A stretch of 64,000 bases of DNA from Escherichia coli (GTDB lineage: Bacteria > Pseudomonadota > Gammaproteobacteria > Enterobacterales > Enterobacteriaceae): assembly GCF_002854065.1 (NCBI RefSeq), contig NZ_CP024147.1. The stretch is one strand, 5' to 3'. Shown here piece after piece: positions 43,501 to 46,500 of the stretch. Made by a program: the position numbers. How positions within the stretch are numbered: position 1 is the first letter of the stretch; each line of letters opens with the position of its first letter.

Positions 43501-46500
43501 TGACCGGAGAAAGCGATCCATTGTTGGCATCTGACAAGGCGCTGGACTGGGTAGATCTGGTGCTGTGCACCGCCGGGCCAATCGGCTTGTATATGGCGGG
43601 CTTTACCGAAGACGAAGCGAAACGTAAAACCCAGCATCCGCTGCTGCCGGGCGCTATAGCGGAATTCAACCAGTATGAGTTTAGCCGCGCCATGCGCCAC
43701 AAGGATTGCCAGAATCCGCTGCGCGTTTATTCGCACATTGCGCCGTACATGGGCGGGCCGGAAAAAATCATGAACACCAACGGAGCAGGGGATGGCGCAC
43801 TGGCAGCGTTGCTGCATGACATTACCGCCAACAGCTACCACCGTAGCAACGTACCAAACTCCAGCAAACATAAATTCACCTGGTTAACTTATTCATCGTT
43901 AGCGCAGGTGTGTAAATATGCTAACCGTGTGAGCTATCAGGTACTGAACCAGCATTCACCTCGTTTAACGCGCGGCTTGCCGGAGCGTGAAGACAGTCTG
44001 GAAGAGTCTTACTGGGATCGTTAACTCATCGGATGTAACCAAATGGCACCCGTAGGCCGGATAAGATGCGCCAGCATCGCATCCGGCAATGCGATTTATC
44101 CAAACAGGGCAATCCCGGCGTCTTTTTTTACTTCTGACATGGACGCATAGAATGAAAAAAGTATGGTATCTGCAACATACGCATTTTGGCGATATGAAAG
44201 AAATCGGTATTTACACCCGTTATGAACGGGCTTTGCAGGGCAAAAAGGACGTGGAAAATAAGCCAGGTTTTGTGGATTCCCCGGAAAATTTTCAGTTTAT
44301 TGAATACATTCTTAACCAGGATCTCTGGGGTGATTTTCCCGTTACACAGGCAGACGATCCCGTCGAGCCGATGGTTTACAGCCTGTGGCACATTCGTGAC
44401 GATGAGGCTGATGATTACGTCTTCCTCGGTATTTATACCACTGCCGAACTGGCGGAGCAGGCCCGCGAACGAGCCTGCCGCTATTTTCAGGAAGATGCTG
44501 CAAATATTCAGCCAGACAAAGGGCTGCTTGATCGTACCTGGTGGGAAGAGGGCTTCATTTCATGGGACGAAGCCTCGGAATTGATTACTCCCAACGCGGT
44601 ATAAGCATCTGGCATTTGGCTCTCGATGCCTGATGCGACGCTGGCGCGTCTTATCATGCCTACATATTTTTCATATTCTACATTCGGCAACCACCGTTTA
44701 CCCCGTCACCACCTCACCCGCCGGTGGCGTTTCCAGCAGTTCCAGCATAGTACGGGCAATTTCACGCTCACCCATCACTACCTGATTCGCGCCACGTTCG
44801 GTGATATACGCCACTTCATCGTCATAATGGGCGCGGGCGATAATCTCAATATCCGGGTTTTTCGCGCGGGCAGACGCCACAATCTCGCCTGCTTCATAAC
44901 CGTTGGGAATCGTCAGGATCAGCCATTTTGCACATTCCAGATGCGCCAGTTGCATAATTTCTTCGTTCGCCGCATTGCCCAATACAGCGCGGACCCCACG
45001 CTCTCGCAGCTCATCAACACGGGTTCGTGACGTCTCAATCACCACCAGCGGAATATCAGAGGCGAGCAATTTCTCCCCCAGCAGGCTGCCTACACGACCG
45101 TAACCAACCAGTAGCGCATGGTTGCAAATATCCACTGGGATCTGCTTCTCTTCTTCGATTGCCTCTTCCAGCGTCTGCTCTTCCAGCGTTTCGGTCTTCG
45201 CCAGATATTTCTCCAGCAGCGCAAACAGGACCGGGTTGAGCATAATCGACAAAATCGCACCTGCCAGTACCAGGTTCTGCCCGGCTTGCGGCAACAGATC
45301 CAGCGCCATGCCCAGTCCCGCCAGGATAAACGCGAACTCACCAATTTGCGCCAGGCTGGCGGCGATAGTTAATGCCGTACGTTGGGAGTGACCAAACAGT
45401 CGCACCAGGAAAAATGCGGCTAACGACTTACCAAACAGAATAATCGCCAGCGTCGCCAGCACTGCCAGCGGTTGCTGAATCAGAATTAACGGATCAAACA
45501 ACATCCCGACGGAGACAAAAAACAGCACCGCAAACGCGTCGCGCAATGGCAGCGTATCGTGGGCGGCACGGTGACTCAGTTCAGACTCGTTCAGTACCAT
45601 CCCGGCAAAGAACGCACCGAGTGCAAAGGAGACATCAAACAGCTCTACCGCACCAAAGGCAATCCCTAACGCCAGCGCCAGCACCGACAGGGTAAACAGC
45701 TCGCGAGAACCGGTTGCCGCGCTGCGTGCCATAATCCACGGCACCAGACGGCGACCTACCAGCATCATAATGGCGATAAACGCGATCACTTTGCCGATGG
45801 TGATCCCCATATCGACTGCAAGAGTGGCAAAGCCCACATCGCCCTGTTCCATCATTCCTGCCACTGCGGGCAGCAACACCAGCGTCAGAACCATTACCAG
45901 GTCTTCCACAATCAACCAACCGATGGCGATTTGCCCACGCTGACTGTCAATTAATTGCCGTTCTTCAAGTGCGCGCAGTAACACCACGGTACTGGCGGTG
46001 GAAAGACATAAACCGAACACGATACCGGTCATTAACGACCAGCCCAGCACGGCAGAGAGCGCCATACCCAGCAGCGTCGCCACGGCTATCTGGGCGATCG
46101 CGCCGGGAATGGCGATGGCCTTTACCGCCATCAAATCCTTCAGCGAAAAGTGCAGACCCACGCCAAACATCAACAGAATGACGCCCAGTTCAGCCAGTTC
46201 CGGCGCAAGCTTGGTATCGGCAACAAAGCCCGGAGTGAATGGTCCTGCCAGCACACCCGCTAACAGATATCCCACCAGAGGAGAAATACGTAGTTTATTG
46301 GCCAGCATGCCGAGGATAAAGGCGAGCACAAGGCCGCCAACAATGGTGGTGATAAGCGGGGTGGCGTGATGCATTCCGTCTCCTTTTCCTGGTGGTTATT
46401 GTCCATTTTTGGCCGGGAAAACCAAAATTACAGGTAATAGTTTATGACAATTTCATTGATGATGTTCATGAATAATTATTGAATTTTGCAGAAAAATGGA

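Follow-up and report, generated by a model that had tools for sequence, protein, structure and literature searches.

A Strain-Variable Gene between gsk and ybaL of Escherichia coli Encodes a Tandem-DUF7336 Protein and Candidate Orphan Immunity Protein

Introduction

The spacer between the core genes gsk and ybaL of Escherichia coli was analyzed in a 64,000-nucleotide (nt) stretch of contig NZ_CP024147.1 (NCBI RefSeq assembly GCF_002854065.1), which is hereafter called the window. In this stretch, the spacer accommodates an open reading frame (ORF) of 150 codons, whose product consists of two diverged copies of the domain DUF7336 and might serve as an orphan immunity protein against a toxin domain found in other bacteria. 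The ORF is already known to RefSeq as a hypothetical protein, and the domain is already listed in Pfam as a domain of unknown function (DUF). What is new here is the placement of the product in DUF7336 as a tandem fusion, the link between DUF7336 and a toxin domain for which Pfam and NCBIfam have no model, and the reconstruction of the locus.

The gsk-ybaL Spacer and Its Repetitive Elements

The left flanking core gene, gsk (inosine/guanosine kinase), occupies 42720..44024 on the + strand, and the right one, ybaL (putative K+ efflux transporter), occupies 44698..46374 on the - strand, as given by the ORF list and by the identical RefSeq locus. The two genes are convergent neighbours, and the spacer between them measures 673 bp, whereas the same spacer in a K-12 derivative is only 132 bp long and contains no gene. 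The initial annotation had stated that no K-12 gene lies between gsk and ybaL and had noticed that the spacer is enlarged here, and both statements are borne out.

The spacer elements on both sides have the properties of repetitive extragenic palindromes (REPs) and bacterial interspersed mosaic elements (BIMEs), which are GC-rich imperfect palindromes of ~35 nt repeated throughout the genome. The inverted repeat GCCGGATAAGATGC/GCATCGCATCCGGC at 44056..44087, which forms an imperfect palindrome, constitutes the left REP, and it is a variant that differs from the REP of K-12 at the same position. On the right, alignment with K-12 reveals a half-REP (GCATCTGGC, 44605-44613) followed by a complete REP (about 44617-44653), and this BIME-like stretch (44605..44653) is a base-for-base match to the empty K-12 site. 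When the spacer was used as a query, a median of 12 matching places per E. coli genome was obtained; query positions 21-69, containing the left REP, are found elsewhere too in E. coli genomes, and positions 581-643, containing the right stretch, are present repeatedly in almost all of them. In addition, naRNA4, an Rfam family derived from REPs, matches at 44055-44119 and 44595-44660, with both matches below the gathering score.

A REP on each side, as originally noted, is thus present. To call the segment a REP-bracketed cargo is misleading, however, since it is a deletion derivative of a two-gene cassette (see below) rather than a unit standing on its own. We also considered the REPs as the ends of a mobile unit and rejected this, because the right-hand REPs are found in K-12 as well, where the site is empty; the insert is situated between the repeats. 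The REPs are resident features of the gsk-ybaL site. Compared to other REP/BIME-rich spacers of E. coli, this one is similar in having REP palindromes on both sides, one side being identical to K-12, but differs in that a gene-bearing insert sits between the resident REPs.

A Rare ORF under Purifying Selection

The ORF spans 44152..44604 on the + strand (453 nt with an ATG start) and is identical to the coding sequence predicted by RefSeq/PGAP in an identical locus of E. coli XJ34, where the product is WP_032280413.1, a "hypothetical protein". A longer reading of 171 aa, starting from an ATG at 44089, was rejected, as this start lies inside the REP and is used by neither RefSeq nor the homologues. 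The alleles of E. coli, E. albertii, and E. marmotae compared for selection each contain 150 uninterrupted codons and no frameshift, and among the four allele lineages the pairwise ratio of nonsynonymous to synonymous divergence (dN/dS) is 0.13-0.21 at dS values of 0.23-0.40. Because this low ratio and the uninterrupted codons show purifying selection on the + frame, we conclude that the ORF is a real gene.

The gene is carried by 12 of 5,426 complete E. coli genomes, always at the gsk-ybaL site. Nine of these genomes, obtained from baboon, cattle, human, wastewater, and environmental sources, carry the segment with 100% identity to the window and the ORF intact in each case, and the other three have an allele with 91% identity. 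In one further lineage (L109 3001-3309), found on at least 13 contigs, a CAG-to-TAG change is located at codon 103, and the adjoining upstream gene, described below as gene 1, is still an intact ORF of 94 aa. One source labels the protein of this lineage E. fergusonii, but the gsk and ybaL flanks are only about 4% from K-12, and the locus was therefore not used as evidence for that species. Because of this nonsense codon, the ORF can decay, and it is plainly dispensable. No plasmid-borne copy of the product was found by tblastn in 72,556 plasmids.

The predicted protein has a pI of 4.38, with 30 Asp and Glu residues versus 14 Lys and Arg residues, and contains six Trp residues. The GC content of the ORF is 47.7% (49.7% at third codon positions), compared to 52-56% (55-62%) for the flanking genes. 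Reading of the sequence, rather than a dedicated predictor, revealed no hydrophobic stretch in the 150-aa product that could be a signal peptide or a membrane segment, and the small size and acidic pI correspond to what is expected of small, soluble, cytoplasmic immunity proteins. No enzyme family was matched in Pfam, NCBIfam, PADLOC, or PHROGs. The first reading of this region had regarded the ORF as coding on the basis of codon usage, its product as acidic, Trp-rich, and without a nameable family, and the segment as variably present among E. coli strains. The selection analysis, the composition, the library searches (no curated match at threshold, with DUF7336 of Pfam as a sub-threshold match), and the genome comparison agree with it in all of these respects.

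Around the ORF start, a 12-nt AU-rich inverted repeat, TTTTTTACTTCT / AGAATGAAAAAA (44124-44135 / 44149-44160; 83% complementary), covers both the ATG and what remains of the gene 1 stop region. It could block the start site unless upstream translation opens it.

Two Diverged DUF7336 Domains in Tandem

The family of the product is not apparent from direct searches. The Pfam model of DUF7336 (PF24024) gives a match below significance at residues 85-104, with an independent E-value (i-E) of 0.043 and 14.1 bits. There is no match in NCBIfam or PADLOC, and PHROGs gives two sub-threshold matches with E ~0.1. A word-indexed homology search retrieved relatives from Escherichia only, and close homologues carry a precomputed "faint" match to PF24024. 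A profile of six Escherichia sequences was therefore searched against 1.84 billion representative proteins at E <= 0.001, which yielded 91 proteins. Most of them are either ~70-90 aa in length, matching residues 1-65 or 74-140 of the product, or ~135-180 aa, matching its whole length. Of 22 single-domain relatives sampled, 20 are DUF7336 according to Pfam at E<=0.001, and a profile made from these 22 proteins recognizes both halves of the product, with i-E values of 2e-15 for domain 1 (aligned residues 1-60; hidden Markov model envelope 44152..44352, + strand) and 1e-13 for domain 2 (aligned residues 74-141; envelope 44368..44580, + strand). Homology to confirmed DUF7336 members is hence established by profile searches in both directions.

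The two halves are also visible as an internal DNA repeat (44204-44239 / 44426-44461, with a spacing of 222 nt) and as a weak BLASTP self-match of the product. Domain 1 retains the family motif H…K.IG.Y…A…PGF.D.P..F.I…W, and domain 2 retains the first part of the motif and the closing W.EGFISWDEA, with loss of the PGF…GF segment. An AlphaFold2 (AF2) model of the product (predicted local distance difference test score (pLDDT) 87, predicted template modelling score 0.79) shows two strand-strand-helix-strand modules, and a Foldseek search of AFDB50 returned proteins named DUF7336 and uncharacterized two-domain proteins at E-values from 1e-10 to 1e-3, in agreement with the same predicted fold. A sequence search of the PDB with the DUF7336 profile gave no match, and a literature search for DUF7336, PF24024, and the RefSeq accessions found no paper.

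From these comparisons, the product is made of two diverged DUF7336 domains in tandem, from a family to which no function has been assigned. Both halves align to the member-built profile and the predicted fold matches that of the DUF7336-named AFDB models, whereas the Pfam model itself scores poorly and the usual PGF-D-P-GF motif is replaced in domain 2. Because the Pfam match is restricted to E 0.043 over 20 residues and because of this motif replacement, the protein represents a divergent, fused branch of DUF7336 that is specific to Escherichia.

As to existing names, several single-domain DUF7336 proteins of 70-136 aa (for example P0096, P0120, and P0123) are called "homoserine kinase type II" in the automatic annotation of the Joint Genome Institute, which looks like a propagated mis-annotation.

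DUF7336 Genes behind a C-Terminal Toxin Domain

The genomic context of the family was surveyed by scanning 100,044 species-representative genomes with a five-sequence subset of the DUF7336 alignment, which led to 80 loci, for which 700 kb of sequence was fetched. The loci belong to Proteobacteria, Acidobacteriota, Bacteroidota, Myxococcota, Cyanobacteria, Planctomycetota, Firmicutes, and other phyla. ORFs upstream of the DUF7336 genes show a recurring C-terminus, …SGKEGAKDVPSWAKGERP…GKDFAKRLLDKKYG…GP.SEF.KIKKWGDRAF, and a profile of this domain, built from nine examples, matches 17 times within the 700 kb, in 15 of the 80 loci. All 17 copies are on the same strand as a DUF7336 gene and end about 10-110 nt, mostly 20-30 nt, upstream of it. 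A gene directly downstream of a toxin C-terminal domain and on the same strand is in the place where an immunity gene is expected, and the DUF7336 family thus holds the classical immunity position behind one polymorphic-toxin domain; it also occurs in orphan modules and arrays.

The carriers of the domain include Rhs proteins, with the TIGR03696 core in L019, L044, L050, L054, L084, and L099, a SitA5 lipoprotein toxin of a myxobacterium, which matches the polymorphic-toxin model NF050093 at E 1e-76, and other polymorphic toxins. The short metagenome contigs L015 and L016 gave no useful information on the neighbourhood. The toxin domain is also directly upstream of DUF7336 in the metagenome loci L019-L022, where a DUF7336 gene of 74 aa begins 29 nt past an Rhs protein of 855 aa and a second copy lies behind a broken toxin fragment. 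Such broken C-terminal fragments followed by DUF7336 are found in L019, L040, and L095. Furthermore, 10 of the 80 loci contain tandem runs of two to four DUF7336 genes, either behind a toxin or alone; in L099, four copies are lined up behind an Rhs toxin, and in L054 there are two toxin modules, each followed by two copies. A search of plasmids with the toxin domain gave four records, in three of which (two Moraxella osloensis plasmids and the Methylorubrum AM1 megaplasmid) DUF7336 follows the domain; in the fourth, from Acaryochloris, the gene after the toxin domain is not DUF7336.

The toxin domain is ~65 aa long and basic (pI 9.4), compared to a pI of 4.4 for the ORF product. It has no sequence match in Pfam, NCBIfam, or the PDB, and its AF2 model (pLDDT 85) shows an irregular N-terminal part followed by two helices and resembles no solved structure. 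If the domain is indeed a toxin, its mode of action could be new, because the fold is unlike any solved one.

There is about an even chance that DUF7336 and this domain, which can be written as SGKEGAKDVPSWAKGxRP...GKxFAKRLxDxKYG...SEFxKIKKWGDRxF, constitute a toxin-immunity pair, for which we found no description. Such a pair would extend from Proteobacteria to Bacteroidota, Acidobacteriota, Myxococcota, and Cyanobacteria and be delivered by Rhs, SitA5, or other systems, and the Escherichia gene would be a fused, bivalent orphan immunity gene, kept at one core-genome site by several Escherichia species as a standing protection.

A Two-Gene Cassette and the History of the Locus

The gsk-ybaL spacer of E. 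albertii (L007-L010) and E. marmotae (L011-L014) contains two tightly linked genes on the same strand, namely gene 1, encoding an acidic protein (pI 4.6) of 111 aa, followed by a homologue of the ORF of 150 or 151 aa. The pair is also carried by three E. coli genomes at the same site, with gene 1 shortened to 94-98 aa. The coordinates of gene 1 are 3744-4040 in L004 and 5001-5336 in both L007 and L011. A 51-nt in-frame segment of the E. albertii and E. marmotae versions is missing from those of E. coli, and the C-terminus of gene 1 differs between alleles by virtue of a T6/T7 run near the 3′ end, reading either …GVFFYF or …GVFFTSDMDA before the stop codon. A profile search detected no homologue of gene 1 outside Escherichia. 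Neither gene 1 nor the ORF has a significant match to any family in Pfam, NCBIfam, PADLOC, or PHROGs, and the pair therefore contains no known toxin or antitoxin family of the type II systems. Because the ORF starts only 1-14 nt past the gene 1 stop in the intact cassette, the spacing suggests that the two genes are coupled there, a coupling that would be lost in the window allele.

The window preserves both edges of the missing gene. The left end of the cassette, ATTTATCCAAACAGGGCAATCC (44094..44115, + strand), is the counterpart of the sequence directly 5′ of gene 1 in the two-gene alleles, and it is followed by a gene 1 remnant (44116..44137, + strand) comprising the last six codons and the stop (GGC GTC TTT TTT TAC TTC TGA, encoding GVFFYF), recognized by comparison with the 3′ end of gene 1 as it occurs in L003, L007, and L011. 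At the junction 44115/44116, …GGGCAATCC is joined to CGGCGTC..., so that the last six codons, CGGCGTCTTTTTTTACTTCTGA, directly abut the sequence upstream of gene 1; in L004, L007, and L011, the whole of gene 1 intervenes. The junction shows the microhomology CAATCC/CAATACC. By this alignment, the window allele is the two-gene cassette minus gene 1, with a short repeat at the site of the deletion. In the E. albertii genome L005, the junction is near-identical to that of the window, with gene 1 likewise lost and the ORF kept.

The cassette of E. albertii is bracketed by a direct repeat of ~26 nt, GCATCYGGC…CTCGATGYCTGATGCG (L007 4920-4945 / 5811-5836), and the K-12 spacer has a single copy of this repeat. 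The empty site would therefore look like either the product of a deletion between the repeats or the state before insertion. Other rearrangements are visible in the same spacer: L004 contains a 64-nt copy of the ybaL 3′ end (3639-3702 / 4496-4559), and L005 contains an 82-nt copy of the gsk 3′ end plus a REP (5862-5943 / 6528-6609).

When the window is compared with E. albertii, the ORF has a synonymous divergence of 0.25, about half the 0.5-0.65 of gsk and ybaL; between the two E. coli allele types, its value is 0.38-0.40, compared to 0.17-0.26 for the flanks. In addition, the divergence of the carriers' flanks from K-12 climbs nearer the cassette. With only about 95 synonymous sites in the comparison, this pattern suggests that the locus was exchanged between lineages rather than inherited by simple vertical descent.

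Relation to Known Immunity Systems

Orphan and fused immunity genes are well known. Polyimmunity proteins were described by Zhang, de Souza, Anantharaman, Iyer, and Aravind (Zhang et al. 2012; PMC3482391) as fusions of two or more immunity domains, encoded in small operons without a toxin. The ORF has this organization, with its two DUF7336 domains and a two-gene, same-strand, toxin-free cassette, on the condition that DUF7336 is an immunity domain. Its product resembles the polyimmunity proteins in being small, acidic, and cytoplasmic, with an alpha+beta architecture of tandem copies of one immunity-type domain. Single-domain relatives directly follow the C-termini of Rhs and other polymorphic toxins, and the tandem runs of DUF7336 genes parallel the fused two-domain product. 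It differs from those loci in that DUF7336 is listed by Pfam as a domain of unknown function, not as an Imm or SUKH family, and would be an immunity domain by its genomic position, and in that neither Pfam nor NCBIfam models the toxin domain with which it is paired.

The ORF can also be compared to the orphan rhsI and cdiI genes of Enterobacteriaceae. Like these, it is a stand-alone, strain-variable gene of the immunity type that probably protects against the toxins of non-kin, and DUF7336 is found elsewhere in arrays of orphan toxin fragments and immunity genes behind rhs (L019, L054, and L099). In contrast to them, the ORF lies outside any rhs or cdi locus; several Escherichia species have it at one constant core-genome position, the gsk-ybaL spacer, with no toxin fragment next to it.

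Possible Function of the ORF Product

Taken together, the observations favor the ORF product being an orphan bivalent, or polyimmunity, protein without a toxin of its own, to which we assign a probability of roughly 0.55, because it has two fused DUF7336 domains, its operon is free of toxins, and DUF7336 stands in the immunity position elsewhere. The initial annotation had guessed at an orphan immunity or accessory protein, and the DUF7336 halves, together with the DUF7336 genes behind the toxin domain in many phyla, speak in favor of this guess. The ORF would then be a functional but rarely retained accessory gene, whose cytoplasmic product, composed of two diverged DUF7336 domains, belongs to a family that by its genomic position would be the immunity partner of the ~65-aa basic C-terminal toxin domain. 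The product would bind and neutralize such toxin domains when competitors inject them, and each of its two domains may be directed at a different toxin variant. Originally, the ORF was the second gene of an operon, with the acidic protein of 94-111 aa encoded upstream. E. albertii and E. marmotae have this operon as a fixed component of the gsk-ybaL spacer, whereas in the lineage of the window a microhomology deletion removed the upstream gene. Because the upstream gene is deleted, expression of the ORF probably relies on read-through from gsk or on a weak promoter. Its expression, the neutralization of a toxin, and a protective role in E. coli are inferred here, and an immunity function of the window gene would follow from gene neighbourhoods in other organisms.

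Several observations weigh against an orphan immunity function. Of the 80 DUF7336 loci, 65 have no adjacent toxin, and some of these are situated among housekeeping genes. The toxin profile finds no match in the window or in the Escherichia loci L003, L004, L005, L007, and L011, because of which the ORF can at most be an orphan, with no cognate toxin next to it. The gene is missing from 99.8% of complete E. coli genomes, it is interrupted in the lineage with the nonsense codon, a promoter scan of the gsk-ybaL spacer found no sigma-70 consensus promoter, and the Pfam model of DUF7336 itself remains below significance.

Some of these points would also fit with a relic, that is, one remaining gene of an old Escherichia cassette, inert in E. 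coli and intact only because it was recently acquired by recombination from a sister lineage that still benefits from it. The scarcity of carriers, the deleted operon partner, the lack of a consensus promoter in what is left of the spacer, the nonsense allele, and the GC content below that of the flanks could all be explained in this way, as could the low synonymous divergence from E. albertii relative to the flanks, which suggests interspecies exchange. We consider a relic unlikely, however, because the dN/dS of 0.13-0.21 is seen in every inter-lineage comparison with the window allele; moreover, the nine carriers from unrelated sources all hold an identical intact copy. The 65 loci without a toxin raise a different thought, that DUF7336 is a general small alpha/beta module with housekeeping or regulatory tasks, its adjacency to toxins being one specialized use and the E. 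coli protein having nothing to do with immunity. Such a role appears quite unlikely because the toxin adjacency is strict: a DUF7336 gene comes after every toxin copy in the 80 loci (17 of 17), and the survey brought up no other conserved partner. Immunity genes without a toxin are normally more numerous than toxin-linked ones, and DUF7336 has no conserved residues of catalytic appearance beyond the structural G, F, W, and H.

The partner of the ORF might alternatively be gene 1 itself, in which case the two genes would make up a module of their own, of the toxin-antitoxin or another type, with the ORF as antidote or partner and unrelated to secreted polymorphic toxins, and the window would have lost the harmful member and kept the harmless one. 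The spacing of 1-14 nt, seen at this one site in E. albertii, E. marmotae, and three E. coli genomes, is in line with such a module, and the loss of gene 1 with retention of the ORF, in both the window and E. albertii L005, is what is expected of a protective member. We find this distinctly unlikely, because gene 1 resembles no toxin, being acidic (pI 4.6), without a family match, and confined to Escherichia, and because the lineage in which the ORF is truncated at codon 103 retains an intact 94-aa gene 1, which is awkward for a toxin held in check by the ORF. In addition, the family of the ORF is tied to a different and well-defined toxin domain.

If the orphan immunity function is correct, a gene for a "hypothetical protein", and by extension a Pfam DUF, would gain a function that can be tested, namely immunity to a small toxin domain across many phyla. 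The gsk-ybaL spacer is a core-genome position at which a small cassette free of toxins is retained, deleted, and probably passed between Escherichia species, and it would illustrate, on a small scale, how orphan immunity genes form defensive baggage that varies between strains. Current ideas are not overturned by this; its value lies in the annotation and in a toxin domain that merits characterization.

A Probable Adhesin Island Elsewhere in the Window

Elsewhere in the window, a gene at 57211-58593 encodes an outer-membrane protein of the TolC family (TIGR01844, E 1e-124). It is followed at 58668-63998, running off the window end, by a gene for a giant adhesin of more than 1,777 aa that is related to SiiEA/BapA (NF047714, E 2e-152) and contains 16 Ca_tandemer repeats, which are tandem repeats stabilized by Ca2+. 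Because K-12 presumably has no TolC-family or giant-adhesin gene at this position, the two genes probably form a type I secretion adhesin island.

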